Shown one piece after another: positions 4,078 through 56,188 of a stretch of DNA of 64,000 bases (positions are counted from its first letter, which is position 1; each line of letters begins with the position of its first letter). The position numbers were made by a program, and so were the translations under genes. The notes beneath the pieces are model-generated. The model did no database searches. It was not told the DNA's origin and saw nothing but the letters and a program-made list of their open reading frames with translations. This DNA comes from Alphaproteobacteria bacterium (GTDB taxonomy: Bacteria > Pseudomonadota > Alphaproteobacteria > UBA828). The stretch is from contig CAXXVO010000015.1 in the NCBI GenBank assembly GCA_963422645.2, forward strand, positions 163,363 to 227,362, written 5' to 3'.

Positions 4078-4079
4078 TC

Positions 4080-10261: not shown

Positions 10262-10992
10262 TTCCTGCTCGCCGCCTTCTCGGTGGTCGCCGTCCCCGCC
10301 TGGCGCGTATGGGAGCGCACCACCGGCTACGAGTGGTACGCCGCCGCCATGGTCACCGTCGCTGAGGCCAAGCTCGGGCTCGGCTACCAGCGCACCTCGC
10401 GCCAGGAGGTGCGCCAGCCCGACGGCAGCACCGTCGTCTCCTTACTCCCCGACATCGCCTCTTCCCCCCGGGCGCTCGCCATGCGCGAGAAGGTCCGCGA
10501 CGAGGTGTTCGCGGGCGCGCTCCTCGGGGCCAAGGCGTCGCTCGCCGCGATGGCGCTCTTCCTCGCGCTGTTCTGGATCCGTGGGCGGCAGTTGCAAGCC
10601 CGGCGCCGCATCCGGGGCGCGGAGCTCGCCACCGTCGGTCAGCTCCGCCGGCGCATCCGACCGCTTCACCGGCGCGCGCTCGGGGTCGTGTTCTCGAACC
10701 TGAAACACCCGCCCTACCGGATCGCCGGCGTGCCCTGGCCCGAGCGCGCCGAGACCCAGCACACCATCGTCTCCGGCACCACCGGCTCGGGCAAGACCGT
10801 GCTCATCTCCGACCTCGTCGACCAGATCCGAAAGCGTGGCGAGCGCTGCGTCGTCTACGACAAGATGGGGAGCTACACCCGCGCGTTCTACGACCCCGCG
10901 CGGGACGTGCTGCTCAACCCGCTCGACGCCCGGAGCCCGCGCTGGTCGCCCTTCTTCGAGGCGCGCAGCCCCCGCGACTTCGACACCATGGC
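10262..10992 (+). pseudogene. traD: Type IV coupling protein (TraD/TrwB-like), 5' part; N-terminus removed by IS21 and gene split by integrative element
   Basis: TM segments, RIRGAEL, ETQHTIVSGTTGSGKT (Walker A), YDKMG, LNPLDARSPRWSPF, ending RDFDTMA at the direct repeat. Confidence 0.88.
10983..10992 (+). repeat. attL core, ACACCATGGC
   Basis: Identical 10-mer at 56179-56188; removing the intervening DNA restores traD in frame. Confidence 0.88.
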
Positions 10993-11114
10993 GCGCACCT
11001 GCGGTGCTAACGTACTGACATAGCATTGCTTGTTTCCTCCTGTTCTGGCCGGAATACACGGAATTCCTCCGTGATTTTGCCCCGGCTGCAACGCAAGGTG
11101 CAGGAGGAATATCA

Positions 11115-12239
11115 ATGGCGACGCTTCGCCTCAATCAACGCCGCGTCGACGCACTCAAGCCCCGCAAGTCCGCCTACGACGTGCGCGACCTCGATCTCAA
11201 GGGCTTCGGCGTAAGGGTTCTGCCCTCGGGCGCCAAGCGCTACTTCGTCCATACCCAGCACCAGGGCCGGCGGGTCTGGAAGATCGTCGGCCAGGCCGGA
11301 GTCATCAGCGCCGACGAGGCCCGCGACCGGGCCAGGACTCTGGTGGCCTCGGTCCGCAAGGGCAACGGCGGCGAAGCCGCGGCGGCGCCGGACATCCCGT
11401 TCGAGACGGTCGCCGATGAAGTCTTCCGCGGCTACGCCCGAAACTGGAAGCCGTCGACGCTCAAGGTCAACCGGTACTACTACCGCAACCAGATCCTGCC
11501 CTGCTTCGAAGGGCGCCCCATCGCCGACATCACCGCCACCGACATCCGGCGCTGGTTCGCGCGCCTTCACGAGACCCCGGTGGCGGCCGACCGCTCGGCT
11601 CCCATCCTCTCGGTGATCATGCGCCAGGCCGAGGTCTACGGCTACCGGCCGGAGGGAACCAATCCGTGCGCGGGCATCAGGCGATACCGTCGCCAGGGGC
11701 GGGAGCGCTTCCTGTCAGCGGCGGAGATACGCCGGCTGGGCGAAGTGTTGGCACGCCACGAGGCCGACCACCCGCAGTCCGTGACGATCATACGGTTGCT
11801 GCTGCTCACTGGATGCCGAAAAGGGGAAATCGTCTCCCTGAAATGGCGCTACTACCGCGAGGGCAAGCTGTTCCTGCCCGACAGCAAGGTCGGGCCGCGC
11901 ACGGTCTGGCTCTCGTCCGCCGCACGCGCCATCCTCGACGACCTGCCCCGTGAGAAGCCCTGGATCTTTCCCTCGCCGCGAACAGACGGTTTCCTGCATG
12001 CCGAGACGGTTAGCAAGGTCTGGCAACGCATGCGGGCGGAAGCGGACCTGTGTGATGTCCGCCTTCACGATTGCCGACATACCTACGCCAGCATGGCCCT
12101 GGCGCAAGGCGAGACGGTGCTGACTATCGGCCGCCTGCTCGGGCACCGCGATCCGGCAACCACGCTGAAATACACGCATCTATCCGACGTCCTGGTGCGC
12201 GAAGCTGTCGACACAGTCGGCGCTGCGCTGGAGGGTTGA
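11115..12239 (+). CDS. Tyrosine integrase A (arm-binding N-domain)
   Basis: GFGVRVLPSGAK arm domain; catalytic TGCRKGE, SKVG, HDCRH, LGH, LKY. Confidence 0.93.
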   Translation: MATLRLNQRRVDALKPRKSAYDVRDLDLKGFGVRVLPSGAKRYFVHTQHQGRRVWKIVGQAGVISADEARDRARTLVASVRKGNGGEAAAAPDIPFETVADEVFRGYARNWKPSTLKVNRYYYRNQILPCFEGRPIADITATDIRRWFARLHETPVAADRSAPILSVIMRQAEVYGYRPEGTNPCAGIRRYRRQGRERFLSAAEIRRLGEVLARHEADHPQSVTIIRLLLLTGCRKGEIVSLKWRYYREGKLFLPDSKVGPRTVWLSSAARAILDDLPREKPWIFPSPRTDGFLHAETVSKVWQRMRAEADLCDVRLHDCRHTYASMALAQGETVLTIGRLLGHRDPATTLKYTHLSDVLVREAVDTVGAALEG

Positions 12240-12745
12240 CCCATGGCCGCGAAGAGGCGGCGTCTGACGGACGCCAACGTGGCGAAGCTGGCGCCGGCGG
12301 CCCACGAGTACACGGTCTGGGACACCCGCTTTGCGGGTCTCGGTGTGCGCGTGCGGCCTTCGGGTCACAAGAGCTTCGTGTATTACCGGAAGGGCGAAGA
12401 CGGCGTGCGCCGAATCACGCTCGGGCCTGTGGCGCTGACGAGCGTCGAGGAGGCGCGTGCCGAGTGTCTCGAAATCGAAACCGCGCCGCCCGCCGGCAGG
12501 CCGGAACGGGACGCGGTCCCGACCTTTGCGGAATTCGTCGCGGGTCCGGCGAACGCGTGTTTTGCCCGCTGCAAGCCGTCGACGAAAGAGACCGTGCGCC
12601 TGGCCTTGAGCGCACACCTGCTTCCGGCCTTCGGTTCCTCGCCGCTGGACCGGATCACCCGTGCCTGTGTCAACCGCTGGTTCGACGAGTACAGCAGGAT
12701 CGCGCCCGGCGGCGCCAATCGCAAGCTGGACTTGCTCTGTCGCAT

Positions 12746-14070
12746 CACTAGTGTCCCAAGAAAATTGGAGAGACCCTTGTTAAGTTATTGACAAAGCGCG
12801 ATTAAGCGCCATTTCGCGCTGTTACCGACTTGAAGTGGCCGGCGCGAGTGCCGAGGCTGGGTTCTCCGATCCAGAGGGAGCCCGGTCATGTCCACGGGAC
12901 AACTTGTCTTCTCGCAGGTGATGGACCATCTGCCCCTGCATTCGTTCCGCAAATGCGTCGAACAATACGATGGTAATCGGTACGTCAAATCGTTCTCATG
13001 CCTGAGCCAGTTTTTCTGCATGGCCTTCGCACAATTGTCCTATCGAGAAAGCCTGCGCGACATCGAGATTTGTCTGCGTGCCCAGAATAACAAGCTTTAT
13101 CACATGGGAATTCGGGGACCGGTCTCGCGCAACACTTTAGCGAACGCCAACGCGCAACGCGACTGGCGCATCTATGCCGAGTTCGCCCAGGAACTGATCG
13201 ACATCGCACGCCCACTCTATGCCGGCGAGGACCTCGGTCTTCAACTCGACAATACCGTGTACGCTCTCGACGCGTCGACCATCGATCTGTGCCTGTCGGT
13301 CTTCCCCTGGGCTCTGTTCCGCTCAACCAAGTCGGCCGTCAAGCTTCACACTCTCCTTGACTTGCAGGGCAGTATCCCGGCCTTCATTCACATCTCCGAC
13401 GGCAAGCTCGGCGATGTGAATGTCCTGGACATCATCATTCCGGAGCCCGGCGCCTTCTACATCATGGATCGCGCCTACCTCGACTTCAAGCGCCTCAACG
13501 CCCTGGATATGGCGGGAAGCTTCTTCGTCATCCGCGCAAAGGCCAACACGAAATACCGGCGCCAATACTCCCGTACCGTCGACAAAGACGCCGGACTGCG
13601 TTGCGATCAAACCATCGTCCTGACCGGAAAGGCGAGCAAAAGCCGCTACCCAAAGCCGCTCCGCAGGGTCGGCTACAAGGATACTGAAACCAACAAGACC
13701 TTCAACTTCCTGACCAACAACTTCGCTGTTCCGCCCCTCACCGTCGCAGAGCTCTACCGCTATCGCTGGCAGGTCGAACTCTTCTTCAAATGGATCAAGC
13801 AAAACCTCCGCATCAAGGCCTTCTTCGGCACCTCCGAAAATGCCGTAAAGACCCAAATCTGGATCGCAGTCTCCGTCTACGTCCTGATTGCCATCATCAA
13901 GAAGAGGTTGAGACTCGATGCCAGCCTCTACACAATTCTACAGACCCTGAGCCTCACCCTGTTCGAAAAAATCCCGCTCAATGCGCTACTTACGCATAAG
14001 GCACTCCCGGTGGGCCAGAGCCGCGAAGATAAGCAACTGATTCTATTGTAGTTTTAATGGGACACTAGTG
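12746..14070 (+). mobile_element. IS4-family element
   Basis: 13-bp IR CACTAGTGTCCCA/TGGGACACTAGTG; 9-bp TSD CTGTCGCAT (12737-12745, 14071-14079). Confidence 0.95.
12888..14051 (+). CDS. IS4-family DDE transposase
   Basis: LDASTI, MDRAY, YRYRWQVELFFKWIKQ (YREK). Confidence 0.95.
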   Translation: MSTGQLVFSQVMDHLPLHSFRKCVEQYDGNRYVKSFSCLSQFFCMAFAQLSYRESLRDIEICLRAQNNKLYHMGIRGPVSRNTLANANAQRDWRIYAEFAQELIDIARPLYAGEDLGLQLDNTVYALDASTIDLCLSVFPWALFRSTKSAVKLHTLLDLQGSIPAFIHISDGKLGDVNVLDIIIPEPGAFYIMDRAYLDFKRLNALDMAGSFFVIRAKANTKYRRQYSRTVDKDAGLRCDQTIVLTGKASKSRYPKPLRRVGYKDTETNKTFNFLTNNFAVPPLTVAELYRYRWQVELFFKWIKQNLRIKAFFGTSENAVKTQIWIAVSVYVLIAIIKKRLRLDASLYTILQTLSLTLFEKIPLNALLTHKALPVGQSREDKQLILL

Positions 14071-14961
14071 CTGTCGCATATTGAACCACGCGGTTGCGAG
14101 CGGCCATCTCCAGATGAACCCGGCGCGGGGCATCAAGCGGAACCCCCGCCCGAAACTCACACGCTTCCTCTCGCGCGAGGAAGTCCGCCGCCTTCATCGC
14201 GAGCTGGACCGTCATGCAGGAGACCGGCCGTCGCGCGCCCGGCAGGCGGACATCATTCGCCTTCTGTTGCTGACCGGCTGCCGGAAGAGTGAGATCCGTA
14301 CACTGCGCTGGCGGGATGTGGACGGGCAAGTACTCAATTTGAGGGACGCCAAGACCGGACCGAGACAGGTCATTCTAAGCGCGCCGGCCCGCGCCATCGT
14401 GCAACGGCAGCCGCGATCGGAAAGTGCCTACGTTTTCCCCTCACCGTCGAATCCGGACCGGCCGCTCTCTCGCAACCTGTCGCTCTGGCTTTCGGTGCGC
14501 AAGGAGGCCGGGATCGAGGATGTGCGCCTTCATGACCTTCGCCACACGTTTGCGAGCCACGCCGTGCTGCAGGGAGTCCCGTTGCCGGTGGTCTCCCGCC
14601 TGCTCGGCCACAGGCATCCGAGCATGACGCTGCGCTACGCTCATGTCGGCGACCGGGAGACCGAGGCGGCGGCGGAACGCATCGGCGCTTCCATCGCGCG
14701 GGAATTGGATGGTAGTATGGCCAGCACAACAGGCGACTGACTCAAAGCACTCGTGTCCGCGCCGTCAACGCATTTCAAAGAGGCTAGGGTCGAGAGAACC
14801 CGGATAACCTCGTGTAGTGGCGATGCAGATAGCACTGAAGAAGGTCGGCGATAATGGTTGGTGGGCCACCCGCCGTCGCCGGGTTTCCTCAGGCAGGAAC
14901 AGGGCGCATACAGTGCAGCGCATACTATTGATTCCCACGATGTGCTTGACCGATACGCCAG

Positions 14962-16089
14962 ATGAAAAGCATTGAGGCCCATTTCAAGGTCGCGACGCCA
15001 TGCTTCGTCGGATCAAGCAATAACAACGCCGAAGTTCGGGTTTCCTCGATCAAGGGTGCGCTGCGATTCTGGTGGCGCGCGCTCGCATGGGCGCAGTGTG
15101 CCGGCGAGGGTGGAGCCAGAGACACGGTCCGGCGCATAAGAGAACGAGAGCACGCATTGTTCGGCTCCAGCGACGCCGGGCAGAGCAAAGTCGCGATGCG
15201 GCTCGACATGAAGGCTATGCCCGAGATCGTGGAAAAGGGCAAGGTGCTGCCCGTCGGCCCCGGCGCACGCTACCTCGGCTACGGGGTAGCCTTCGGAAGC
15301 AAGAAAACAGGCACGAAACCGGGGCAGTTGATCCGCCCCTGTCTCGCGGCCCCGTTCCCGTTCTCCTTGCGAATTGCCGCACGGGACGCGCGGGCATTGT
15401 CTGACATCGCACCTGCACTGCGGCTTCTCGGTTTGGTCGGCGGTGTGGGGGCTAGGGCCCGCAAGGGCTACGGCAGCCTCGTTCTGACTTCTCTCGAAGG
15501 CGACGGTATCACCGGATGGCGGCCGCCCCGAGATATCGAGACATACTGCGGCCATCTGAGTTCGCTGTTGAAGGGCGTGGAGGCCATTGGCCGCGAGCCG
15601 GAGATCAGCGTGTTCTCGGCATGCGCGCGCGTCGATCTGATGTCCGAGAATGCCCGTACGCCCGCGGAAGTTCTCGACGAATACGGCAAGGCGATGGTGC
15701 GCTACCGAAGCTGGGGCCGAAACGGCAGGATTCTCGACGGCGAGCCTTCCAAATGTCGTTTCCGCGAAGACCATGCCTGGATGAAAAGCGAACAAGCAGC
15801 CGACGATTTTCACCCGCGCCGCGCGGTGTTCGGGCTGCCGCACAACTACGGGAAAAACATAGACGTTAAGCCGGATCAGCACGACCGGCGCGCGAGCCCC
15901 CTCTTCTTTCATGTCCACGAAATCGGCGCTCGGTATGCGGGTATCGCGTTGTTGTTGCGATCACGCTTTCTGCCCGAAGGCGAGAAGATCAGGGCGCGCG
16001 GAAAGGCTGTTCCTGCCAAACCCGACTGGGGCGTGTTGACGACGTTTCTGGATGAAAACCGGACACGCGGACTCTGGCCTGATGGCTGA
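14962..16089 (+). CDS. cmr1: Type III-B RAMP Cmr1
   Basis: SIKGALRFWWRA, GGVGARARKGYGS, RAVFGLP, RRASPL. Confidence 0.92.
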   Translation: MKSIEAHFKVATPCFVGSSNNNAEVRVSSIKGALRFWWRALAWAQCAGEGGARDTVRRIREREHALFGSSDAGQSKVAMRLDMKAMPEIVEKGKVLPVGPGARYLGYGVAFGSKKTGTKPGQLIRPCLAAPFPFSLRIAARDARALSDIAPALRLLGLVGGVGARARKGYGSLVLTSLEGDGITGWRPPRDIETYCGHLSSLLKGVEAIGREPEISVFSACARVDLMSENARTPAEVLDEYGKAMVRYRSWGRNGRILDGEPSKCRFREDHAWMKSEQAADDFHPRRAVFGLPHNYGKNIDVKPDQHDRRASPLFFHVHEIGARYAGIALLLRSRFLPEGEKIRARGKAVPAKPDWGVLTTFLDENRTRGLWPDG

Positions 16090-18004
16090 CCGAATCCTGC
16101 ACGTTTCGATCGGACCGGTGCAAGGCTTCGTCGCCCAGGCGCGGCGCACTCGGGACTTGTGGGCTGGGTCATTCCTGCTGTCGTGGTTGGCGGGACAGCT
16201 CATGGCAGCGGCGCTGCGCCGGGGCGGTCGGATTCTCTTACCCGTGGTCGGCACGGAGCGAGAACCGAGGGATTCGATGCTGGCCGCCGTTCTCGGGCAG
16301 CCGCTGTCCGGCGAACTGCCGCGTATCGGCAGCCTGCCTAACCGCTTCAAGGCGGCGGTCTCTGACGTCTTCGATCCCGAGGCGGTGGCGGACGAGGCAC
16401 GGCGGAAGTGGCGCGATCTGGCCGAATGCGTATGGCGGCGCTTCGTCGCTGGCGAAGTTGGCCTCGGCCACGATACCCGCGCCATCTGGGACCGCCAGAT
16501 CGATGGGTTTTGGGACATCCAGTGGGTGGCGGGCGCCGACCCGGGCGACGGGAGCGACGCCGCCTGGCTTGACCGGCGCAAGAACTGGCGTACTCACTGG
16601 TCGCCCGAAGAAGACGGGGACCATTGCACGACGATGGGCGACCGACAGGAACTGTCGGGTTTCGTTCGCAGCCGCGAGCGGTCGGACCAGGACGCTTTCT
16701 GGCGCGCGTTGCGAACGCGGACGGGGCGGCTCGATCTTCGCGACGGCGAGCGTCTCTGCGCGATCGCGCTGGTCAAGCGCTTGTTCCCCCGGCTCGAACC
16801 GACGGAACTCGAGCAGACAATCGGCTGGAGGATCAGCACGACGAACTGGCCCTCGACAGCCTATATGTCGGCGGTGCCTTGGCTCGCCCATGTCGCTGCC
16901 CATACTGAGCACCGTGCTAAATTGCAGGATTACGTCGAAACCGTCCGTAAAGCCGTTGGTCCGTCAACTTTCAGCAAGCTGAGCGGCGAACGCGCCGCGC
17001 GGCTGCCCAGGCTCGCCCCGCTCGGCGCCGCCGCGGACTTGGACGGCAACCTGTTTCTCGAAGCTGCGCTGGCGAACCCTCGCGCGACACCATTGAGCGA
17101 CGACGTACGCCTGCCCGGCGAAGCCGATGGGAAAGACGACCCGGACGCGGCGCCTCGCGTGCGGTTGTCAAGCGCTTTGCACGAACTCAGCGAGACGGTC
17201 GGCGCCGCGCGGCCGTTCTATGCGCTGTTGCTGATGGACGGTGACCGACTCGGCGAGTTGCTGCAAGAAAATGGCGAGGAACGGGTTTCCGAGGCGTTAG
17301 CAGAATTCGTTCGCCGCGTCCCCGACATCGTTCACGATAACGACGGTATGACCGTCTATGCTGGAGGCGACGATGTCTTGGCGATGCTGCCCGTCGATCG
17401 AGCGATCGATTGCGCGACTGCATTGCGCCGTGTCTACGGCAAGGTGTTTGCGAGTCGGGCTTTCGTGGAAGGCGATAAGGAGGGCGTATCCGCTACCGCG
17501 TCGTGCGCCATTGTCTTCGCGCATTATCGCAATCCGCTACGCGAAGTATTGGCGCTGGCTCACAGGGAACTCGACGAGACGGCCAAGGAAAGAAATGGGC
17601 GCGACTCCTTGACGCTCTCCGTCATGCTGCCCAGCGGCGTGAACCACTATTGGGTCGCACGTTTCGGAGGGGCGCCGGAGGCGCTTGAGGCGCTCTGGCG
17701 GAAGCGTCTTCCGGCGAGCTTCTTGTACAATTTGCGTCAACGCTACGATGTCCTGATCGGCGATCTCGACCCGGGCGACCGACGCGCCGTAGTTCTGGCC
17801 GAATACGTCAAGGGCGCACCACCGAATACCGAGGACGGACATGCACGCGCCGAAGCCGCTGTGGACGGGCTGCTTGCCGCCTGCACCACGCTTCGCGGAG
17901 ACGACGCGCCCGACGAGGTAGGGACGTTCCGTCTCGATGGCGCATTCATCGCCCGCTTCCTAGCAGAATCCAGCGACTTCGAGCGCGCGGCGACGCCATC
18001 ATGA
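16082..18004 (+). CDS. cmr2: Type III-B Cas10/Cmr2, no HD domain, intact cyclase motif
   Basis: IGPVQGFVAQARRTRDLWAGSFLLS at N-terminus; MDGDRLG; YAGGDDV. Confidence 0.95.
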   Translation: MADRILHVSIGPVQGFVAQARRTRDLWAGSFLLSWLAGQLMAAALRRGGRILLPVVGTEREPRDSMLAAVLGQPLSGELPRIGSLPNRFKAAVSDVFDPEAVADEARRKWRDLAECVWRRFVAGEVGLGHDTRAIWDRQIDGFWDIQWVAGADPGDGSDAAWLDRRKNWRTHWSPEEDGDHCTTMGDRQELSGFVRSRERSDQDAFWRALRTRTGRLDLRDGERLCAIALVKRLFPRLEPTELEQTIGWRISTTNWPSTAYMSAVPWLAHVAAHTEHRAKLQDYVETVRKAVGPSTFSKLSGERAARLPRLAPLGAAADLDGNLFLEAALANPRATPLSDDVRLPGEADGKDDPDAAPRVRLSSALHELSETVGAARPFYALLLMDGDRLGELLQENGEERVSEALAEFVRRVPDIVHDNDGMTVYAGGDDVLAMLPVDRAIDCATALRRVYGKVFASRAFVEGDKEGVSATASCAIVFAHYRNPLREVLALAHRELDETAKERNGRDSLTLSVMLPSGVNHYWVARFGGAPEALEALWRKRLPASFLYNLRQRYDVLIGDLDPGDRRAVVLAEYVKGAPPNTEDGHARAEAAVDGLLAACTTLRGDDAPDEVGTFRLDGAFIARFLAESSDFERAATPS

Positions 18005-19107
18005 CCCTTGTTTGTTTCGAGCCCGTGGATACGCTTTTCTTCCGTGACGGGCGGCCGTACGAACAGGGAGAGGCGAGCCAGGCGGGAGTCGTGAGCGGAT
18101 TTCCACCGTCGCCACCAACCCTCGTCGGAGCAGTCCGCGCCGCCCTGGCCCGATCCATGGGTTGGGCGCGCGGCAGCTGGAGCGCCGACATATGCGCGCG
18201 TCTGGGGGATGGCGGCGACCTCGGCCCGCTGCGGTTCCGGGGGCCGGTCGTGTCGCGAGACGGCGAAAGCCTGTTCCCCGCCCCGGCACACCTGATGGGC
18301 GGACCACGGCGCGAAGAATTCGACCCCGGATCGCTGACCTTGCTGTCGCCCGGCGGCGGCTTGACCTGCGATCTCGGTCCGGATCTGGCGTTGCCGTCCG
18401 CCGCCGGCGCCGTGAAGTGCGTCAAGCCGCTACTCGATCAAGGCTGGTGGATTACCGCGTCGGGACTCGCAGCGGTTCTGCAAGGTGACGTTCCCGCCTC
18501 CGGAGACTTGGTTCACCGCCGCGATTTGTGGAGGGAGGAGTCGAGGGTCGGCATCTTCCGTTCGGAAGGTACGCGCGTCACAGCCAAAGGTGCGCTGTAT
18601 TCTCCGAGCCATATCCGCCTCGGGCGCCGGGTTGCGTTAGCGGTCGAAGCCTGCGGGCTGCCGCCGGATCACGCCGACGTCCTGGCCGGACGACCGCACC
18701 CCGTGGGGGGCGAAGCGCGCGCCTGCTGGATGCGCTGCGTTGAGGGGCGGCTGCCTCTTCCAGCGCCGCCCGATTTGCGAGCCGCGCCGGGGCCGCTTCT
18801 CTATACTGTGACCGTTCTGACGCCCGCCAATACGGAGGCGCCGCCGCACCCCGGAGAGCGCGAATATGCGGGGCTGCCCGGCCACATCGTAAGCGCCTGT
18901 TTACCCCGCCCGACCCTCGTTGGCGGTTGGGATTCGCAAGCGGGAAGACCGCTGGCGTTGCGCTCCCATCTGGCGTCTGGCAGCGTCCTTTTCCTGAAGA
19001 CTCGACGAGACGACGTATCCCGGGTCGCGGCGCTGCACGGTGCCGCCGTCGGCGCGCGCGCCGCTTGGGGCTTTGGGCTGGTTGCCATCGGTAAATGGAA
19101 GCGCTGA
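18001..19107 (+). CDS. cmr3: Type III-B Cmr3
   Basis: EPVDTLFFRDGRPY, FPPSPPTLVGAVR, GGWD, WGFG. Confidence 0.93.
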   Translation: MTLVCFEPVDTLFFRDGRPYEQGEASQAGVVSGFPPSPPTLVGAVRAALARSMGWARGSWSADICARLGDGGDLGPLRFRGPVVSRDGESLFPAPAHLMGGPRREEFDPGSLTLLSPGGGLTCDLGPDLALPSAAGAVKCVKPLLDQGWWITASGLAAVLQGDVPASGDLVHRRDLWREESRVGIFRSEGTRVTAKGALYSPSHIRLGRRVALAVEACGLPPDHADVLAGRPHPVGGEARACWMRCVEGRLPLPAPPDLRAAPGPLLYTVTVLTPANTEAPPHPGEREYAGLPGHIVSACLPRPTLVGGWDSQAGRPLALRSHLASGSVLFLKTRRDDVSRVAALHGAAVGARAAWGFGLVAIGKWKR

Positions 19108-19133
19108 AACGACCGAACTCGGGAGCTGCCGCA

Positions 19134-19967
19134 ATGAACCATGCGTTTCTCGGCCTTCTGGCCGAAACCTTTGTCCACCCCGGCACCGGCCAAAGCGGCG
19201 GCGCCATCGACCTGCCGGTCGCGCGCGAGGCGGCGACGGACTATCCGTTCATTCCCGGTTCCGGCTTGAAAGGTGCCTTGCGCGATGCTGTGGGGCAGGG
19301 CCTGGAACCGGAAGAACGGGACCGGATGTTCGGCAAACCCGACCAGGCCGGCGCCTTGCTGGTCTCCGACGCGCGGTTGCTCCTGCTTCCGATCCGTAGT
19401 CTGACCGGTGCATACCGCTGGGCGACATGCCGCCATCTGCTGGAGCGGCTGGCGCGCGATCGACGACGCGTCGACCCCGCGAACGCTGCGGAAAGTTTGC
19501 CCGATGTCGAGCCATACAGCTACGTTGCCGTGTCGTCAGCGGAAGGCGGCGACAAGCTCTATCTTGAGGAACGCAGTTTCCGTGCCATGCCGTCGGCTGG
19601 CGCCGGTCTGGGCGGTTGGATCAATGTCATTGCCGACCTGATCGCCGACCCGATGGCGCGCGAGCGGCTAGCCAGTCAACTGGTGTTGTTGTGTGACGAT
19701 GATTTCTGCTGGTTCGCCCGAAACGGCCTCGCCGTCCAGGCGCGCAACGTGCTCGACGAGCGCAAAAGGAGCGAGAATCTCTGGTACGAGGAAACCTTGC
19801 CGCCGGATACGTTGATGTACGCGCTCCTCGCGGAACGGGTGTCCGAGGCCGGCGGCATCAAGGCGGTCGGCGCGGCGTTCGAGCGCCGGCCCTACATCCA
19901 GGTCGGCGGCAACGAGACCGTCGGCCAAGGCTGGTTGCGTACGGCATGGCGGGAGATGAGCGGATGA
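19134..19967 (+). CDS. cmr4: Type III-B Cmr4
   Basis: HPGTG...IDLPVARE...IPGSGLKGALR; LWYEETLP; QVGGNETVGQG. Confidence 0.95.
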   Translation: MNHAFLGLLAETFVHPGTGQSGGAIDLPVAREAATDYPFIPGSGLKGALRDAVGQGLEPEERDRMFGKPDQAGALLVSDARLLLLPIRSLTGAYRWATCRHLLERLARDRRRVDPANAAESLPDVEPYSYVAVSSAEGGDKLYLEERSFRAMPSAGAGLGGWINVIADLIADPMARERLASQLVLLCDDDFCWFARNGLAVQARNVLDERKRSENLWYEETLPPDTLMYALLAERVSEAGGIKAVGAAFERRPYIQVGGNETVGQGWLRTAWREMSG

Positions 19968-20386
19968 CCGCCCGCAGCCTTGACCAGCGCCGCGCCGAGC
20001 ACGCGCTGGGTCGAATCAGGAAACGGCAGGCGCACCCGAAGAAGTCCAACTACTTGGCCTATGCCAAGGCATTGCCGGCATCGATCCTGCAAAACGGGTT
20101 CGGGCAGGCAATGGCGACTCTGCGCGCGGCGGCGAAGTCAGGGGACGGCAACGACCCGCACCTTCTTCTGTATGAAGATGTCCGTGACTGGCTGTGCGGC
20201 GACGACGAGGATGCACCCTATCGAAACGAGCTGGATCTGCTCGAAGCAATTGTTTGCAGCGACCAACGGACCTATCTGCTTGCGCATGCTGAAGCGCAGA
20301 GTTATCTTGGCTGGCTGAAGAAGTTTGCCGCCGCTTGGCTTAGGCCGTCTCTGAAGCCGTCGTCGGAAGAAGACGACAATGGGTGA
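19964..20386 (+). CDS. cmr5: Type III-B small subunit Cmr5
   Basis: RSLDQRRAEHA, LPASILQNGFGQA, WLKKFA. Confidence 0.93.
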   Translation: MTARSLDQRRAEHALGRIRKRQAHPKKSNYLAYAKALPASILQNGFGQAMATLRAAAKSGDGNDPHLLLYEDVRDWLCGDDEDAPYRNELDLLEAIVCSDQRTYLLAHAEAQSYLGWLKKFAAAWLRPSLKPSSEEDDNG

Positions 20387-21383
20387 ACGGCCGCTGTACC
20401 GGGGCGCCGATATCCGGTCTTTGCCGAAGGGCGGCAATGCCGGGCTATGGTACGACAAGTTCTGCCATTCTTGGACGAGACTATCTGCGCGAGACGCGGA
20501 CTTCGACAAGGCAAAGTGGGTCAGCGACGCCGCTGGGCGGTGCGGAAACGCGGACGAACTGCGGCACCGGGCGGAACGGCAACGGGAGCTGATCGAACGC
20601 CTGAACGGCCGCTGCCTCGATCTGCAAACGGCCGGCCCGTTCGTTGCGGGCCTTGGCCGCGCGCATCCGGTGGAGAACGGGTTTCTGTGGCATCACCGTC
20701 TCGGGGTTCCCTATCTGCCCGGCTCGTCGGTGAAGGGCGCGGTCAGCACCTGGGCCAAGCGGTGGAAAGCGGAGTGCGATGCCGATTGCTACCGTATTCT
20801 CGGGTCGGAAGAGCGGGTTGGCGACGTGATCTTCTTCGATGCCTTGCCGACGAAGCCCGTGCAAACGAGAGTCGACGTGATGACTCCGCATTACGGCGAA
20901 TATGACCGGGACGGCAAGCCGCCGGGAGATTGGATTTCGCCGGTCCCGATACCATTCCTCTCGGTCGCGGAGGGAGCCATGTTCCGTTTCGCCGTCGCGC
21001 CACGGCGGCAATCCTCGGAAGCATCGCGCGACACAGCGTGCCGATGGCTCGAAGACGCGTTGGAATGGCTGGGAGCAGGTGCCCGGACCGCCGTTGGCTA
21101 CGGACGCTTCGGCAAGGCTCGCCCGACCCCACCGCGTGAAGTCAAGAAAGGAGACGAGGTCGAGGCGGTCTTGTTCAGGGATAAGAAAGATCGCTGGTGC
21201 GGGCGTACCGGAGACGGGCAGGAAGGCACAGTGTTCTCCAGCAGCTTGGCGCCGGACGACGCCACCGTCAACGAGATCAGAACCCTTTATGTACGCGTCG
21301 TGCGACCTCTTCAATTCCAGTGGAGTAAATCCGTGCCGAAATCGCCGCCCCGGCGGTCACCGGAAAAATTCCGTCGCCGTTGA
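20379..21383 (+). CDS. cmr6: Type III-B Cmr6 with C-terminal extension
   Basis: GLGRAHPVENG, GVPYLPGSSVKG, DVMTPHY, GAGARTAVGYG. Confidence 0.93.
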   Translation: MGERPLYRGADIRSLPKGGNAGLWYDKFCHSWTRLSARDADFDKAKWVSDAAGRCGNADELRHRAERQRELIERLNGRCLDLQTAGPFVAGLGRAHPVENGFLWHHRLGVPYLPGSSVKGAVSTWAKRWKAECDADCYRILGSEERVGDVIFFDALPTKPVQTRVDVMTPHYGEYDRDGKPPGDWISPVPIPFLSVAEGAMFRFAVAPRRQSSEASRDTACRWLEDALEWLGAGARTAVGYGRFGKARPTPPREVKKGDEVEAVLFRDKKDRWCGRTGDGQEGTVFSSSLAPDDATVNEIRTLYVRVVRPLQFQWSKSVPKSPPRRSPEKFRRR

Positions 21384-21735
21384 TTTGTGACGGCGCGCCA
21401 TGCCGCAACCGCAGCCCACACATAACCTGTTGATCGCGACTGTCGGCGGCAAACCGGAACCCTTGGTCGCCTCGATCGCGCACTGGCGGCCCGACCGGGT
21501 TCTGTTTGTGCCTTCGAGCGATACTGCCGACCAGATCGCCAGTATCCGGCACCTGCTAAACAAGCAGGGGCGCAATCTGTCCGAAGGTGCATACGACACG
21601 GTTCCGCTATCGGACCCTCAAGACTTCTTGCAATGCGTGCAGGAAATGCGCTCCGAATTGGAGTCGTGTGTCCTCCAATGGCGCGGGCGCGGCGAGGGAT
21701 ATGATTGCATAGTGGATTTCACCGGCGGCACAAAA

Positions 21736-23503: not shown

Positions 23504-24738
23504 TGCATGAGTGCCGCGCTCGCCTTGGTCGCCCGACCGTGGCTGAACTCCCGGTTCTCGTATGTCGGTGGTGCCGAACGCGACCGGAACAATGTCGGCA
23601 TCGTGGTCTCCGGCAGCGAGCGGGTCGTACACGCAGCCAATCCGTGGGACGCGCTCGGTTATCAGGCGGTCGAGGATGCCGTGGCGGCATTTGACAGATA
23701 CGCTTTCGGCGAAGGCGCTCAACTGCTTCGGGACGCCTTGAAGAGGATTTCGGATGACGGATCCCGCAAGAGCGAACTTAACGCTCTTGCCACGTTCATG
23801 GATGCTTACGATCTCTGGAGTCGGTCGGAGTACGGGAAGGCTTTTGAGAAATTTGAGCAGTGCGAAAAGCGCCTGAATGATCTGGCGGCCGCCCTCCACC
23901 CGAACCCCAGGAATCGACTGAAAGATCACATCAATGAGGCAAGAACCCGCTTGGAAGGCCTGAAGCGAGGTTTCGACCATCCGACGCGGGCATTGCTTGA
24001 AGACCTGATCTCCGATGCCAAACGGCGTCAGCAGGAAGGCCGTCACGTAGATGCCTTGGCCCGGCTCTACCGCGCGGTCGAGGCGACGGCCCAACTGCGC
24101 TTGTGGGAAAAGTACGAGATCCGCACTTCCAGCGTACCATTGGAAAAGCTGCCGCAACCCATGCGCGAACGCTTGAAAGCTCAAGCTGAAGACGGGACAG
24201 TGAAGCTTGCACTGCAGGCTTCCTTCGAGTTGTTACGATGTTGGCAGGATCCTTTGGGTGAACGCTTCGCAGAACTGGGCTGGCATGGTCGTGGTTCGCC
24301 GCTGATCCGGCGCAACGAGTCGATCGCGGGGCACGGTTTTGCACCCGTATCGCCGGAAACATCCGTCCAGCTGTGGGAAGGAGCGCTGTCGCTGGCGGAA
24401 TTGGCCGATAAAGACGTCTTCCGGTTTCCACAGCTTGGTCGATGAGCGCGCTTCGCAATCGGCCTTACCAAGGGGCGCCTGCTCGCCGTCGCCGAGACCA
24501 TGCGCAATCTGGCCAGGAAACCGGGGCGGGTTCTCGGCTTCCCGAAAATTACCGACGATGTTGCCCCGCGGCCAGCACCCGGCTGACTGCCCCCTCCGAG
24601 CCGCGTCCATCGCCAACCCTCGGCACGCAGGGAGCGAGCCCTTATGCTCAGATGAGGCCGTGCTCGGCACTCGCGTCCAAGGGGGACCCTCTGGGGCGGC
24701 ACGATGCCGGCTAAATCCAGCGCACAGCCGCTGCAAGG

Positions 24739-37626: not shown

Positions 37627-37631
37627 CGCAC

Positions 37632-41581: not shown

Positions 41582-41583
41582 GC

Positions 41584-52000: not shown

Positions 52001-53830
52001 CACGTCCAGATCGCGCGCGATGCGCAGCAGCGCGTCGGCGCGCACGGTGTCGATCATCGACGCTTCGTCCACCGCCAGCACCGCGCCCCCGTACTCCTCC
52101 CGGCCCCGCGCCAGCCGCGCCGGGTCGGAAAGATCGTTGAAGCGGGTCAGGAAGTGCTGAAGCGTCCGCGAGGGTATGCCGGCCTCCCTGGAGAGAACCC
52201 GGGCGGCGGCGGCCGAGGGCGCAAGGCCCTGTATCGTCCGCTCTGCGGCACGAGTGTCCCCGAGAAGCGCCTTCACCTCCCTCAGCATGGTCGTCTTGCC
52301 GCTGCCGGCATGGCCCTGCACGCCGACCGTGAGATCGTTCGACAGCAGCACCGTGCGGACCGCCTCCCTCTGGCCCTGCGTGAGGCGCGACGCCCCGAGC
52401 CGCGCCTCGACGGCATCCGCTCCGGCCAGCGCCGCTCCCTTGCCCCGCCCCGCCCGCATCGACGCCAGCACCTGGCGTTCGGCCTTCACCGCGCGGTCGG
52501 TGACAAAGGCCCGGTCCATGCCCCTACGTTTCGCCTCGATCAGCTCGCCGCCCTGTACGAGCCGTGCGATCGCCCCGTCGACCTCGGCCAGCGTGTAGCG
52601 CCCCGGCGCATGGCCCAGCGCCACCGCCCGGATCTCGGCCTCCGGGATCGCGGTGCGCCTCTCCGCAACGTGCGCCACAGCCCGCGCCACCGCCTCCAGG
52701 ACCCCCTGCTCAGGCTCCTGCGACAGCTCCGTCGGCGCCGGAGAGCGAGGAGACGTGGGATGCACCCCCGCCAACACGGCAACGCCGTCGCGGGGCTGCC
52801 TCGGCAGCGCCGGCAGCGCCGGCGCGCGCTTCAGGCTGCGGATCTCGTTGGCCGGCAGGTCCGGCGGGGGCACGCGCGGCAATCCGACCCGTTCGCCGGT
52901 CACCGGGTCGAGCGGCCGGGACGGCGTGAGAGCCGTCTTCTCCCGGACCAGACCCAGTGCCCGCGCCCGCGCGCGCCATTCCGGCACCAGGTCCGCGAGA
53001 CCCTTGTCTTCCTTGCGCCGGCGCGTGTGAAGCGCCGCCATCTGCGTGTGCTTCGCCGTGTACGACAGGTCCCGGCGTTCCAGGTACGCAAGAATCTCGC
53101 GGCGCCTGCCCGAGAACGCGTCCAGGAAGGAACGGTCGTAGCCCGCAAGCTCGAACCCCGGCACCCGTCCCACCAGGGTCGGCGAGACGGCCATGCCGAG
53201 CGCCTGAAGACGCAGCGCGAGCTCGTTCCGGTAGTACGCCCCGATCAGCTTCTCGCTGCGCCGGATCCTCGTCGGCTCCACGCTCCGCCATTCCCCGGAC
53301 GCATTGCGCGTCATGTTGGCCAGCACGCAGTGGGTGTGCAGCTGCGGGTCCCGGTCGCGGCTCGCGAGATGCCGGAACCCCGCCACCACCATGCCCTCCG
53401 CCTGCACCCGGGGACGGCGCCGCGTCGCGGGGTCCCAGCCCCGGGTCTGCAGAAGCTCCGCCTCCACGAAGCCCAGCGTCGCGCGCACCGCCTCGTCGTG
53501 AGCCCGGATCACCCGGCGGTCGCCCATCACCAGCGCCTCCAGCGATACCGACTTCGGCGCGGACAGGGTGATGTCCCAGCCCGGCCGGTGATCGTGCTCC
53601 CCCTCGCGCATCCGGCCGAGACGCAGGTCCGTCCCCGGCACGTATCCCGACAGCACCAATTCGAAGCGCGAGGGACGCACATGGGCCTTGAGCCCCAGCG
53701 CCCTCGCCGCATCCCCGTACCAAAAACTCGCCTGGCGGTGCTCGGGGTCGTTCTTTGCGTAGTAGCCGTCGCGCTCGTAATAGGTCACCGCCATGGCGGA
53801 CGAGCGAAGCTCTACGACCGTGGCTACCAT
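49025..53830 (-). CDS. MobF (TrwC-like) relaxase-helicase of the integrative element, with long repetitive C-terminal tail
   Basis: YYERDGYY, DITLSAPKSVS, HLASRDRDPQLHTH, GHAGSGKT, DEASM, HAYCSTVHAAQG. Confidence 0.93.
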   Translation of the reverse strand: MVATVVELRSSAMAVTYYERDGYYAKNDPEHRQASFWYGDAARALGLKAHVRPSRFELVLSGYVPGTDLRLGRMREGEHDHRPGWDITLSAPKSVSLEALVMGDRRVIRAHDEAVRATLGFVEAELLQTRGWDPATRRRPRVQAEGMVVAGFRHLASRDRDPQLHTHCVLANMTRNASGEWRSVEPTRIRRSEKLIGAYYRNELALRLQALGMAVSPTLVGRVPGFELAGYDRSFLDAFSGRRREILAYLERRDLSYTAKHTQMAALHTRRRKEDKGLADLVPEWRARARALGLVREKTALTPSRPLDPVTGERVGLPRVPPPDLPANEIRSLKRAPALPALPRQPRDGVAVLAGVHPTSPRSPAPTELSQEPEQGVLEAVARAVAHVAERRTAIPEAEIRAVALGHAPGRYTLAEVDGAIARLVQGGELIEAKRRGMDRAFVTDRAVKAERQVLASMRAGRGKGAALAGADAVEARLGASRLTQGQREAVRTVLLSNDLTVGVQGHAGSGKTTMLREVKALLGDTRAAERTIQGLAPSAAAARVLSREAGIPSRTLQHFLTRFNDLSDPARLARGREEYGGAVLAVDEASMIDTVRADALLRIARDLDVARVALVGDTAQLRAVDAGQPFRLLQKAGMATATMDEVLRQRDPALRATVGRAREGEPGAAIAALGNRVREAPREELGLEAARRWLALAPEQRADTLLLAPTHAIRRQANEAVREGLVEEGVLRGRTLAVDRLVNRRLTRALASDIQSYEPGDTVVFHRDVFGCRANDVRTVTGHDDGRVVLAHADGERRFRPSGNASRYLGLYDTERIELRAGDLIRWTRNRKAPLGRGRHPRAPDLVNGGEAEILEIGYRRVRFREGGREFSLALADPQLRHLDHAYCSTVHAAQGRTARAAIAVLDAGGGADRELFHVELSRVSEEFLLLTDDRDALIESMAYDRGEDGALESLGIDLAEPPVVDPEEFAALAADWRALLREGEAANTLPFFLPGYRDTMAQAAALAQIEDLPEDMRRLTATMLAKHGEHLAHDREVRGLVEGIRDHWRRWPELGWAASSQGVPVETLAEHAAWREEGTALLQAGRSLVEADGETARRVVAHHLHAMLGGRAGLEDAVGMLERTRLLDDAGRFERAWRALRERAAETGVPEIYSQGYRQVAELGKSLVAVDQGLDARTQRAVAEWREVDTTQAALAEEVRALPGRIAAWRAVDLPQEEPGGLDPAHPARQSWREEGAALQAMAGDMLRPEDVHAPHLYAVPGRREAVRQAAEEVGDALRKDGYRAFGWLTKEVNRQARETGTEAFHVPRYGELAAQAGALSALPARTQEVVASWLDYHARSEPVCRQIREWPARADALTADCPERPATLDALAGWRQRAEPLLAEARAMLANDAPQARHLAAMPDERKALAGGTGRLDRALIAVEAQETDVLSSVVQEWAEETGGIGFDASGYAALTERARSLDARPHLPERLRERVDGLLARDERWAHNRDRVEAFLVRAAEAVRARQVMTQQRVTTSSFEERLQARQDCRQKEQEVLDEAAALRKDVPQHELTAHLGAAGAGPDAVREREEEIRNRIAHEQEKQAALRMRRDRGMSM

Positions 53831-53905: not shown

Positions 53906-54559
53906 TCACTGCCATCGGTAGAGCAGATGTATGTGGCTCTCGAGCAGCATGCCCAGGACGAAGACGAACAGGCCCACAAGAACTGTCTTCAGGCCGAACC
54001 TCGGCCCGGCCGTCTGCGTGCGGATGTCATCGAGAGTCTCATGGACCAGACGGGAATGCTGGGTGACCTGGTTGCGCGTCGCCGCAAGTCCCGTCTCGAT
54101 CCTGGTCACGGCCTCCTCGATCCCGGCCGCGACCCGGTCCCCGGTGGTTTCCATGCCCTGATCGATGCGCTCCGCTGCCGCTGCCGCCTTCGCCGCCGCT
54201 TCCTCGATCCTGCCGGCATGGTCTGCGACGGCCGCCGCCGCGTCGTCCCCCGGCGCGTCCCCGATTCGCGCAGCCTCGGCGACGCGGGCCACGAGCTTGT
54301 CGCCCCAGGACTCGAGCGCCTCCAGCGTCAGTGCCTCAGACACTGCCGCAGGCTCTGGCGCAGACCGTTCCGTCGACACCGCTTCCTTCAGTCCGGCCAC
54401 CTGCTCCCGCAGGTTCCGCACTTCGGTGAGCAGTTGCTCGATCGCAGCCGGATCGATACCGGGATCCGGCCGCGAGGCAGGCGGGTCCTCCGCCGGCAGG
54501 CTCGCAAGGAGGTCCGGCCGGCCTGTCCGCGTGCTCTTGCCGTCGCGCTCCGCAGTCAC
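53906..54559 (-). CDS. Hypothetical coiled-coil protein with C-terminal TM helix
   Basis: Co-oriented in the relaxase operon; hydrophobic VLVGLFVFVLGMLL. Confidence 0.6.
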   Translation of the reverse strand: MTAERDGKSTRTGRPDLLASLPAEDPPASRPDPGIDPAAIEQLLTEVRNLREQVAGLKEAVSTERSAPEPAAVSEALTLEALESWGDKLVARVAEAARIGDAPGDDAAAAVADHAGRIEEAAAKAAAAAERIDQGMETTGDRVAAGIEEAVTRIETGLAATRNQVTQHSRLVHETLDDIRTQTAGPRFGLKTVLVGLFVFVLGMLLESHIHLLYRWQ

Positions 54560-54628
54560 GCTATCCCTCTCCTCGTTCGGTCGACCTCGCGCACATCATT
54601 CATGCCGGCGACGCAGACGGTGAGCGCC

Positions 54629-55153
54629 TCACAAGAGCCGGTTCCGGCCGGGGTCCGTCTCCCCCTCGCGGGCCTGTGGCGCGACCGATTGCTTCGCTGC
54701 CGACGGCTCGGTCGAGACCGCGACCGATGCCGCAGCGATGCGTGCCCGCTCCTCGCCCAGCACCGACGCGAGCGCCAGCCGCAGCTCTTCCGAGCGGCCC
54801 GACCTGGCCATCGCAGACGCCCACGCGGCGAACGTCACCGCGATCCTCTCCTGCATGTCGCGCACAAGGGGACCCGAATCCTCCCCCTCCAGCATCAGCG
54901 CGCGAACCTCCCGTACCGCCTCCAGCTGCTCCCGCTGCTCTTCCTTCGCAAGCGCCAGCGCGGGATACCTGTGCTGAAGCCCCGCGTCCTCTTCCGAGGC
55001 GTCCCGCTCCACCAGTTCCAGCAGGTAGCGCGCGATCGACAGGCCGCGCCGGTCGGCGTTCTGGCGAACTACCTCCCAATCCGCGTCCGTCGCCGAGATC
55101 GAGATGTGCCTGCTCGGCCTGCGCGCCTTCCGCCGCCGCCGCACCCGCCTCAC
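54629..55153 (-). CDS. RHH/MobC-like accessory protein
   Basis: HISISATDADWEVVRQNADRRGLSIARYL. Confidence 0.6.
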   Translation of the reverse strand: MRRVRRRRKARRPSRHISISATDADWEVVRQNADRRGLSIARYLLELVERDASEEDAGLQHRYPALALAKEEQREQLEAVREVRALMLEGEDSGPLVRDMQERIAVTFAAWASAMARSGRSEELRLALASVLGEERARIAAASVAVSTEPSAAKQSVAPQAREGETDPGRNRLL

Positions 55154-55461
55154 GGCGCACGCTCCCGTGCAAGGACGGACACCGCGCTCAGAAGGCTAAG
55201 CCCGCTGCCCCCCGGAAGCTCGCGCCGCAGAGCCCGCACGAATGCCTGCAGCTCCCGCACCCCGTCCCGCTGCTCCACCTGTTCCGCTTCCGTCAGCACC
55301 AGGGGATGGCGGTCCGAATCGTCGGCGAGCCCGAGTTCCAGCACATAGCGCGACACGGTCTTCTCCGCGGCCGCCGCGCGCTCCCGGATCATCGCCTGTT
55401 CAGCCGGCTTGCAGTGCAGGCTCCGCTGACGCCTGACGGGCCGCGCCGCCTCCTCCGTCAC
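55150..55461 (-). CDS. RHH/MobC-like accessory protein
   Basis: RSLHCKPAEQAMIRERAAAAEKTVSRYV. Confidence 0.6.
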   Translation of the reverse strand: MTEEAARPVRRQRSLHCKPAEQAMIRERAAAAEKTVSRYVLELGLADDSDRHPLVLTEAEQVEQRDGVRELQAFVRALRRELPGGSGLSLLSAVSVLARERAP

Positions 55462-55820
55462 GATCCATCCTCCTCAACCCGCCCCGCCGCCTTCCAGCGG
55501 TTCGCAGCGCCGGGATCGGTGAGCCGGTCGAGCATGCCCTCCCGCTCGATCCATTCGTCCGCCGCGTCGCAGGCGTCCTCCCAGGCCTCGCCGGCGCCCG
55601 CCCCGCGCAGCCGCCTCTCCTCCAGCCTGGACAGCACCAGCATCTCGCGCACCGCTCGGCGCAGGACCTCCGGCGGCAGAGGGTCCCGGTCCAGCACGCG
55701 ATGGATCACGAAGCGCGACAGGTCCATGCCGCTCGCCGCAGCCGCCCGGCCGATCCGTTCCCACTCCGCATCGGTGGCCATGACCGCGCGCTGGCGCCGT
55801 CCGCCGGCATCCTCCCTCAT
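55458..55820 (-). CDS. RHH/MobC-like accessory protein
   Basis: RAVMATDAEWERIGRAAAASGMDLSRFV. Confidence 0.6.
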   Translation of the reverse strand: MREDAGGRRQRAVMATDAEWERIGRAAAASGMDLSRFVIHRVLDRDPLPPEVLRRAVREMLVLSRLEERRLRGAGAGEAWEDACDAADEWIEREGMLDRLTDPGAANRWKAAGRVEEDGS

Positions 55821-56178
55821 CGTGGCCGCCCGCCCGCAGGGACCTGCTGCAACCGGGACACGCGGCCACCTCTAAATGCAGGATAGAGCACGCAACTCCT
55901 ATGACATTCCTCGCTCCGAGCAATACATGCCATTCGTGTGTCCTGACCGACTGATCCGTTTTCGCCATGGAGACCATACCACTGCTCCACGGCAAATTCC
56001 ACATCCCGACTTCCCCGAATGCAACTCCCGAGAGACACAAGGGCAGCCAATGTGTCCTCCACCCCGCCCCACTCACCCTTGACTTCGTCCATAACCCATT
56101 GTAGCATCGCTCTAATTTAGGAGGTAACTGCAACCCTACGTCCGTCCCTGTGCACTGTGAAATCGCGTGAGGTAGTGC

Positions 56179-56188
56179 ACACCATGGC
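56179..56188 (+). repeat. attR core, ACACCATGGC
   Basis: Direct repeat of 10983-10992. Confidence 0.88.

Follow-up and report, generated by a model that had tools for sequence, protein, structure and literature searches.

A probable integrative mobilizable element with two CRISPR-Cas systems and paired tyrosine integrases in the coupling-protein gene of an alphaproteobacterial conjugative-element remnant

A 64,000-nt stretch of contig CAXXVO010000015.1 (hereafter the window) from the genome assembly of an alphaproteobacterium (G000, 23 contigs, 8.5% estimated contamination) was analysed in this study, and positions 10983-56188 were found to hold a 45.2-kb insert that is bracketed by two copies of the 10-mer ACACCATGGC and splits traD, the coupling-protein gene of an F-type conjugative element. 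We consider it probable that this insert is one integrated copy of a loosely targeting family of integrative mobilizable elements (IMEs), and that its landing in traD is a by-product, not a dedicated strategy. The split gene and the ends of the insert lie as follows:

10262..10992, + strand: 5' part of traD, from the transmembrane region to just past Walker A (PF10412 positions 2-95), ending in the left repeat copy
10983..10992, no strand: core of the left attachment site (attL), ACACC plus the 5-nt spacer ATGGC; ACACC is the family-wide target motif
10993..11114, + strand: left end of the element (GCGCACCTGCGGTGCTAAC...), conserved across 30 related loci and two paralogous G000 copies and containing a GCACC/GGTGC inverted repeat; presumed integrase-binding region and integrase promoter
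55821..56178, no strand: conserved non-coding right end (~360 bp) that ends ...GGTAGTGC before the core, with inverted repeats at 56034-56056 and 56149-56181, homologous in genome G001 and other copies; candidate origin of transfer (oriT), promoter and integrase-binding end
56179..56188, no strand: core of the right attachment site (attR), ACACC plus ATGGC; the right ends of 20 of 25 other copies read ...ACACC and then diverse flanks
56179..57542, + strand: 3' part of traD, covering the remainder of the nucleotide-binding domain together with the C-terminal tail (PF10412 positions 86-387, PF12696)

The boundaries of the insert can be read directly. Only two copies of the 10-mer are present in the window, one at 10983-10992 and one at 56179-56188 (0.11 expected by chance; two or more in 1 of 100 shuffles), and similarity to two paralogous integrase modules elsewhere in G000 begins exactly at the core, at 10980-10983. 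When orthologous elements are compared as well, similarity sets in at the core on either side of the insert. The 5' frame of traD, ending at 11023, matches positions 2-95 of the 387 positions of Pfam TrwB_AAD_bind (PF10412), and the 3' frame, from 56157, matches positions 86-387 together with TraG-D_C (PF12696). Sixty-five traD-type matches were found in 18 of 21 genomes of the genus, and all 29 examined non-window copies of this type IV coupling protein (T4CP) with flanks are contiguous over the break point, residue 302 of the N-half abutting residue 9-10 of the C-half; one of them, L076, reads RDFDTMAAALIPQQKDTVDPFW across the site, one residue off the predicted rejoin. Both halves have the same best homologues (identity of the N-half 50-69% overall and 80-89% near the junction; C-half 68-90%), and since these shared homologues are contiguous, the halves are one gene. 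A different origin of the halves, prompted by a paralogue on G000 contig C3 (62% identity on the N side versus 90% on the C side), was rejected because the same gradient is seen in all homologues and the N side reaches 80-89% near the junction. In contigs of three public sequencing runs, traD passes from 10992 straight into the sequence after 56188, with 30/30, 20/20 and 27/30 letters identical, and an empty traD site therefore exists in nature. The first-pass annotation of this DNA had claimed that traD is split at the repeat and rejoins in frame, and both the contiguous homologues and the empty junction bear this out; halves with different closest homologues, which it had named as a ground for refutation, were not found. 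No close traD relative or empty site was found in PLSDB by tblastn with the traD 3' half, which retrieved distant TraD homologues of 36-43% identity only, and no tRNA target was found in the window.

The genes for integration and mobilization stand at opposite ends of the insert:

11115..12239, + strand: IntA tyrosine integrase (Pfam PF13356, PF14659, PF22022 and PF00589), which appears intact and is 79% identical to the IntA of G001
12243..14740, + strand: IntB, the second tyrosine integrase, in pieces 12243-12791 and 14081-14740, both with Pfam matches
49025..53830, - strand: MOBF-type relaxase-helicase of 1601 aa (Pfam TrwC PF08751, 6.3e-75; AAA_30 PF13604, 2.5e-45)
53906..55820, - strand: four small conserved genes upstream of the relaxase gene, three with weak NikA-like (ribbon-helix-helix) matches (E 2.4e-5 to 2.5e-3, all below the Pfam cut-off)

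IntB starts 3 nt past the IntA stop, and the two genes are apparently translationally coupled. Both products are tyrosine recombinases (PF00589) and neither is a serine recombinase; they are diverged paralogues (31-47% identical), each with an arm-binding PF13356 domain, a SAM-like domain and a catalytic domain. The number of recombinase genes is two in the window element and in its relatives, and not three or more as in the recombinase-in-trio/GInts arrangement. IntB is split in the window by a 1.3-kb copy of an IS4-family element (12744-14070, DDE_Tnp_1/DUF4372 transposase, with six other 100% copies in G000), and is uninterrupted in the elements of G001 and of G040 contig C3. G000 contains no fewer than 13 neighbouring integrase pairs, which belong to several subfamilies and show 36-79% identity to IntA. 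In two relatives the relaxase is 88-89% identical along almost its entire length; its relaxase domain is 47-50% identical to that of the flanking element's relaxase, and the four small genes, presumed relaxosome accessory proteins, are 73-97% identical in relatives. No T4CP was found inside the insert, the only PF10412 matches on the window contig being the two traD halves; a scan of all coding-like frames found no gene of a type IV secretion system (T4SS) inside the insert, and VirB4/TraC was not found in the G000 assembly. The insert thus combines an integration module with attachment repeats and a relaxase of its own, with no complete T4SS, which is the make-up of an IME. Two integrases, a private MOBF module, the lack of a T4SS and a coupling protein, and type III-B plus type I-G CRISPR-Cas had all been described in the earlier reading, and all were recovered here.

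Relatives of the insert place it in a family. A search of 49 genomes including G000 found the accessory gene in 16 of the 20 other genomes of the genus and in none of the 28 genomes of the order outside the genus, with 25 high-identity copies in total and up to seven per genome. These counts point to an IME family that is both widespread and multi-copy within this alphaproteobacterial genus. Two structural counterparts come from a single same-genus genome that is listed twice, as G001 and as G040. G040 contig C3 holds a ~36-kb copy at a non-traD site, with the full order of the window element, both CRISPR-Cas systems (CRISPR, clustered regularly interspaced short palindromic repeats) and 58-98% protein identity: IntA-IntB-cmr1-6-CARF/HEPN-array-cas2-cas4/1-cas3ext-cas3g-csb2-csb1-relaxase-accessory genes. 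This copy has no blocks of insertion sequence (IS) elements between the integrases and the cas genes, and its relaxase carries a separate ~6.8-kb insertion. The synteny of the two dual-CRISPR copies implies that the cargo travels with the element, and the comparison indicates that the dual-CRISPR island is a real travelling unit. The second relative, a 27.2-kb element in G001, has IntA at 79%, an intact IntB at 70-79%, the relaxase at 89%, the accessory genes at 73-92% and a homologous right terminus, and carries IS66, IS91 and a group II intron-type reverse transcriptase as cargo, with no CRISPR-Cas. It splits traD ~75 codons further upstream than the window site, between ...ETQHTIV and SGTTGSGKT, and the interrupted traD follows F-type TraU, TrbC, TraH and TraG, with TraC 14 kb upstream. 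The spacer after ACACC is ATGGC at both ends in the window, ATCGT versus AGCGT in G001 (L007/L075) and TCCAC versus TTAAC in G040 contig C3 (L135-L137); such unequal spacers in two of the three elements hint either that coupling sequences were brought along from a previous site or that strand exchange does without homology in the overlap.

The diversity of targets in the family was surveyed from both ends. On the integrase side, 69 IntA loci were reduced to the 30 that could be read (at least 55% identity, with upstream sequence), after L034 and L038, which have no upstream DNA, and 37 distant or partial loci had been dropped. ACACC stands 5-6 nt before the conserved end (G)CGCACCTNCGGTGCTAA in 28 of these 30 ends. 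Ten flank frames were scanned, nine had a Pfam match, and all nine matched unrelated genes, namely an OYE-type oxidoreductase, a DruA/transposase-associated gene, a branched-chain permease, an enoyl-CoA hydratase, a phage portal, a luciferase-like oxygenase, a metallo-beta-lactamase fold, TauD and a Rieske protein; one further flank appears on visual inspection to be a tRNA gene. Visual inspection also places a paralogue on G000 contig C5 in an ABC ATPase-like gene, and the closest IntA relatives (77-82% identity) are in oxidoreductase, permease and ABC ATPase genes, among others. On the relaxase side, the survey covered all 25 high-identity copies of the accessory gene. A terminus could be recognised in 22 of them and the end ...ACACC in 20, and two, in G040 and G044, abut traD, both at the upstream site (site 2). 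The exact 10-mer is present and unoccupied in seven traD copies, and ACACC at site 2 is unoccupied in 12 of 30. Specificity for the coupling-protein gene is accordingly not a family trait: two of 25 copies abut traD, and what 28 of 30 integrase flanks share is ACACC only. The claim of a dual-CRISPR IME within a coupling-protein gene stands on these data, while the part of it that saw a dedicated strategy of parasitising that gene finds little support in them. Insertion of related elements at unrelated sites had been named as what would refute it, and such sites were found, with metabolic, transport or phage genes as flanks; a survey for insertion at the same traD motif, proposed as a check, returned the two copies at site 2, with most ends elsewhere.

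The cargo between the integrases and the relaxase is made up of two CRISPR-Cas systems and IS material:

14962..21383, + strand: type III-B operon cmr1, cas10/cmr2, cmr3, cmr4, cmr5, cmr6 (Pfam; NCBIfam TIGR01894, TIGR02577, TIGR01888, TIGR02580, TIGR01881 and TIGR01898)
21400..24445, + strand: CARF-HEPN (Csx1/Csm6-type) ancillary gene, as a CARF piece at 21400-21759 and the remainder at 23507-24445 (PADLOC PDLC01802 positions 3-96 and 97-378)
24446..34877, no strand: ~10.4 kb of IS debris with an IS5-like fragment, IS110, an IS21/Mu fragment, an IS630 fragment, a helix-turn-helix protein, an IS1380-like element and Transposase_29, missing in the G040 contig C3 element
34878..35348, - strand: CRISPR array of seven 36-nt repeats and six spacers of 36-38 nt (Rfam CRISPR-DR16)
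35594..44290, - strand: type I-G operon csb1/cas7g, csb2/cas5-6, cas3g, Cas3-extension, cas4-cas1 fusion and cas2 (Pfam; NCBIfam TIGR02570, TIGR02165, TIGR02621 and NF049934)
44623..48837, - strand: IS66-family material between the cas genes and the relaxase, with a fragment at 44623-45792, a frame at 45774-46694 and a 709-aa IS66-like transposase at 46708-48837, repeated in G000 and missing in the G040 contig C3 element

All six Cmr proteins of a type III-B system were matched, the NCBIfam matches lying above the curated cut-off except for cmr3, which matches Pfam Cas_Cmr3 at 1.4e-71. The type I-G system is represented by Cas3g (TIGR02621, 770 bits), Csb1, Csb2, Cas4-Cas1, Cas2 and the array. 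In the syntenic copy on G040 contig C3 the cmr operon is 79-91% and the I-G operon 91-98% identical. An IS110 element at 21726-23503 (Pfam; many G000 copies) interrupts the CARF-HEPN gene, the pieces of which adjoin in G040 contig C3. There are eight CRISPR-DR16 repeats in the insert in total, one of them a stray repeat inside the IS debris at 30645-30681, which implies that IS elements landed in the CRISPR array. From this gene content we infer that III-B and I-G share one array, the III-B system using the array of I-G, and the two systems are presumably active as immunity. No spacer is common to the window array (six) and the 17-repeat array of G040 contig C3 (15 extracted). A protospacer search with these six and 15 spacers against G000 and all loci retrieved for comparison returned self-matches only, and a search with the whole array in 21 genomes of the genus matched only other arrays or repeat fragments. 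A separate observation concerns genome G030, which gave no match to the accessory gene of the IME; at C6:988648-997296 it has a Cas3g of 82% identity and a large array with the same repeat, so the I-G system also exists outside the IME family. As for the IS66-like gene of 709 aa, relatives of its region (46708-48837) at 82-85% nucleotide identity lie directly beside other integrase pairs, at G000 C13:254230-256536 and C6:340540-342607, which suggests that this gene is associated with a different paired-integrase subfamily.

The window copy has probably lost its mobility and is in decay. IntB, the CARF-HEPN gene and the CRISPR array are all interrupted by IS elements, and ~18 of the 45 kb of the element are insertion-sequence material with other copies in G000. 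The element that it interrupts is damaged as well:

7710..10261, + strand: IS21-family element outside the IME, with IstA at 7818-9344 and IstB at 9331-10059 (Pfam rve/Mu-transpos_C_2 and IstB_IS21) and ~68 near-identical G000 copies
57533..60502, + strand: TrwC-type relaxase of the flanking transfer-gene remnant (Pfam), whose end runs into an IS1595 copy at 60453-61507; a copy of 98% nucleotide identity is on contig C13

The traD homology starts at 10262, which corresponds to residue 30 of the L076 T4CP, and the first 58 codons of the frame at 10088 belong to the IS21 copy. The 29 missing codons were found neither upstream nor elsewhere, and IS21 as a simple insertion into traD was rejected because they do not lie upstream of it. 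The IS21 element marks a rearrangement joint, by which a phage tape-measure-like frame was brought next to a 5'-truncated traD. TraH, TraG, TraU and TrbC, by which an F-type host element was recognised in G001, were not found in the G000 assembly, and the interrupted conjugative element is a remnant, consisting of a 5'-truncated traD and a relaxase gene. The loss of 29 codons implies that excision would not restore a working traD. The proposal that the IME switches off its helper's transfer and restores it on excision therefore fails for the window copy, with traD lacking its first 29 codons, IntB broken and the F-type transfer genes absent from the assembly. Two more remnants of a transfer module of this kind were seen in G000, a frameshifted traD at C3:18818-20255, truncated after ~residue 223 of the 3' half, and a traD tail with relaxase at C13:249270-252796, 98% identical in nucleotides to window 56697-60206.

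Beyond the remnant, window positions 1-7709 hold structural genes of a Mu-like phage (decoration protein, major capsid E, Gp36, virion morphogenesis, DUF6631 and the tape-measure-like frame, which is cut by IS21), with a copy of the phage block on contig C8 (94-96% nucleotide identity) and a 91% piece on C6. On the other side, 61566-64000 (- strand), where GC falls to 0.56-0.60, holds a Gabija pair at the contig end, namely GajB (582 aa, PADLOC 1.8e-185) and a GajA represented by its C-terminal 230 aa; lying beyond the host relaxase and IS1595, this pair may be former cargo of the integrative conjugative element (ICE). The IS load of G000 is extreme, with ~68 copies of IS21, ~96 of the Transposase_29 element, ~100 of the IS66 fragment, ~32 of IS110 and ~17 of IS1595.

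How the family moves may be sketched as follows. The backbone consists of the integrase pair at one end and the MOBF relaxase, its four accessory genes and a presumed oriT at the other, with the cargo between them. The two integrases, putatively as a heteromer, would act jointly on ACACC and a short overlap that need not match, recombining the joined ends (...GTGC-ACACC-N5-GCGCACC...) with chromosomal targets for which little beyond ACACC is required, and this loose requirement would let the element land in many genes. In the traD genes of F-type ICEs, conserved codons supply two ACACC sites, one encoding D-T-M-A, which the window copy occupies, and one encoding H-T-I-V ahead of Walker A. Insertion knocks out traD, and precise excision would restore the gene. 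After excision the relaxase is expected to nick oriT, and the coupling protein (TraD) and T4SS of a helper would export the element.

Some of our results weigh against reading the traD landing as an accident, or against present-day movement of the element. Two independent traD sites have been used in the family (site 1 in the window, site 2 in G040 and G044), and ~2 of 18 distinct right-flank targets are traD, copies of which make up at most ~0.2% of a genome; without the index case the figure is ~1 of 17, roughly p=0.03, a rough estimate in which kin are not independent. Some preference for, or selection of, traD insertions is thus possible. Several other identical sites recur in different genomes, and such recurrence could reflect either more specificity than ACACC alone or common descent. 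The contigs with the empty site show 8-10 letter differences to the window in 266-716 bases; these contigs represent another allele or copy and are no proof that the window copy excises. A regular-expression search of assembly G000 for attP-like joined ends found none, only five ordinary left ends, all with ACACC, and no circular form of the element was seen in the public-run contigs among the loose ends listed. Of the two junctions that the first-pass annotation had proposed to look for in reads, the empty traD was therefore recovered (as another allele or copy), and that of attP was not. The absence of a helper, moreover, rests on one assembly of 23 contigs with the contamination given above, which may be without plasmids. 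In runs X15 and X19, the region of window 10277-10992 is represented by an uninterrupted traD allele 1-2.5% different, at a word depth of 543 and 141 versus 8 and 6 for the element, where depth is not copy number; a more abundant replicon, strain or transcript carries intact traD in these runs, which leaves open a helper outside the G000 assembly.

Against this background, we regard as unlikely the reading of a defence-island IME specialised for its helper's coupling-protein gene, which silences the ICE while resident, restores traD on excision and is then mobilised alone. It would fit an insertion that is in frame and precisely reversible, a second family member at the other traD site of a complete-looking F-type ICE (G001) with the same site taken in G044, a relaxase of the same MOBF type as that of the ICE, and the precedent of Firmicutes IMEs with two traG sites in the available text of PMC5704250. 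However, 23 of the 25 other relaxase-module copies are not beside traD, the nearest IntA relatives occupy genes for an oxidoreductase, a permease and an ABC ATPase, the CRISPR-carrying sister copy on G040 contig C3 lies outside traD, traD stands unoccupied in seven copies with the exact 10-mer and in 12 with the site-2 ACACC, and the traD of the window is also truncated in an assembly where no transfer genes were found. A broader proposal seems to us rather unlikely: that an integrase heteromer, ACACC and a non-matching coupling sequence of 5-6 nt define a transposon-like class of IMEs multiplying in genomes, whose landing in traD is selected and reversibly gates F-type ICEs while CRISPR-Cas is carried between hosts.

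Alternatively, the insert might have grown by accretion, with IS-mediated rearrangement bringing a CRISPR island together with an integrase module and a relaxase module that were separate before. The ~18 of 45 kb of IS material, the IS21-mediated rearrangement next door and the integrase pairs elsewhere in G000 that lack this relaxase would agree with such a history, but the same gene order without the IS blocks and with the same end types in G040, the homology of both ends to those of the G001 27-kb element, and the exact fit of the traD halves make it very unlikely. That the junctions are an assembly artefact of mis-joined repeats is hardly credible, although hundreds of IS copies, the 8.5% estimated contamination and an intact traD allele far deeper than the element in two runs could invite that suspicion. 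The junctions lie in unique sequence and not in IS copies, homologous elements share the ends, and short-read contigs from an independent run, which begin within traD 30 letters ahead of the junction, extend for 650 bases into the element without any difference, although they miss the bridging rule by one letter. One integrated copy of a loosely targeting IME family is therefore the reading that we retain.

If this reading holds, the family can carry two complete CRISPR-Cas systems in a single package, a point of relevance for the horizontal spread of CRISPR immunity. It also illustrates that an essential gene of a helper can be struck by loose targeting of a 5-bp motif, and advises caution in drawing a strategy from single insertions. 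The ACACC-anchored integrase pair may be of interest for programmable or low-specificity integration of large cargo.

Integrases of the P4-type/Int_SXT-like group act alone, usually on one tRNA or gene-end target. IntA and IntB resemble these integrases of islands, ICEs and phages in having arm-binding (PF13356), SAM-like and catalytic domains, but are always found as an adjacent pair, and their targets share only ACACC. More than one tyrosine recombinase at one end and multiple insertion sites are features shared with Tn554 (TnpA, TnpB, TnpC), recombinase-in-trio elements, GInts and SE-6945/Tn6283. In the strand-biased circularizing elements (SEs), according to the available text of PMC9345347, 6 nt beside the core are carried from the previous site, and the unequal end spacers in two of the three elements here are similar in this respect. 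In gene content the family differs from them: no third gene such as TnpC or the SE coding sequences CDS2/CDS4 stands next to the integrases or between them, both integrases are of the arm type, and a relaxase is present.

In the literature searched, with the exception of supplementary tables, we found no described IME with III-B plus I-G and no two-integrase MOBF IME, nor was an earlier case of an IME in a coupling-protein gene outside Firmicutes found in that literature. Within Firmicutes, the available text of PMC5704250 describes IMEs in traG (the VirD4 coupling protein) of Tn5252-superfamily ICEs, for example IME_Sco1050_traG_site1/site2 and Tn6104. The present family is like them in having no T4SS of its own, in lying inside a coupling-protein gene, in using two sites per family and in raising the same question of whether the host element is disabled. 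It differs in that those elements, as far as that text goes, are Gram-positive, non-MOBF and use serine recombinases of high specificity, whereas the present alphaproteobacterial family combines two tyrosine integrases with a MOBF relaxase, is inserted here in an F-type traD and has most of its members at other sites. Defence systems are common cargo of IMEs, 31% of which carry one according to the available text of PMC10201445. The element described here is like those IMEs in that immunity against mobile genetic elements is its main cargo, and unlike them, as far as they are covered there, in that it carries two complete CRISPR-Cas types with one array.

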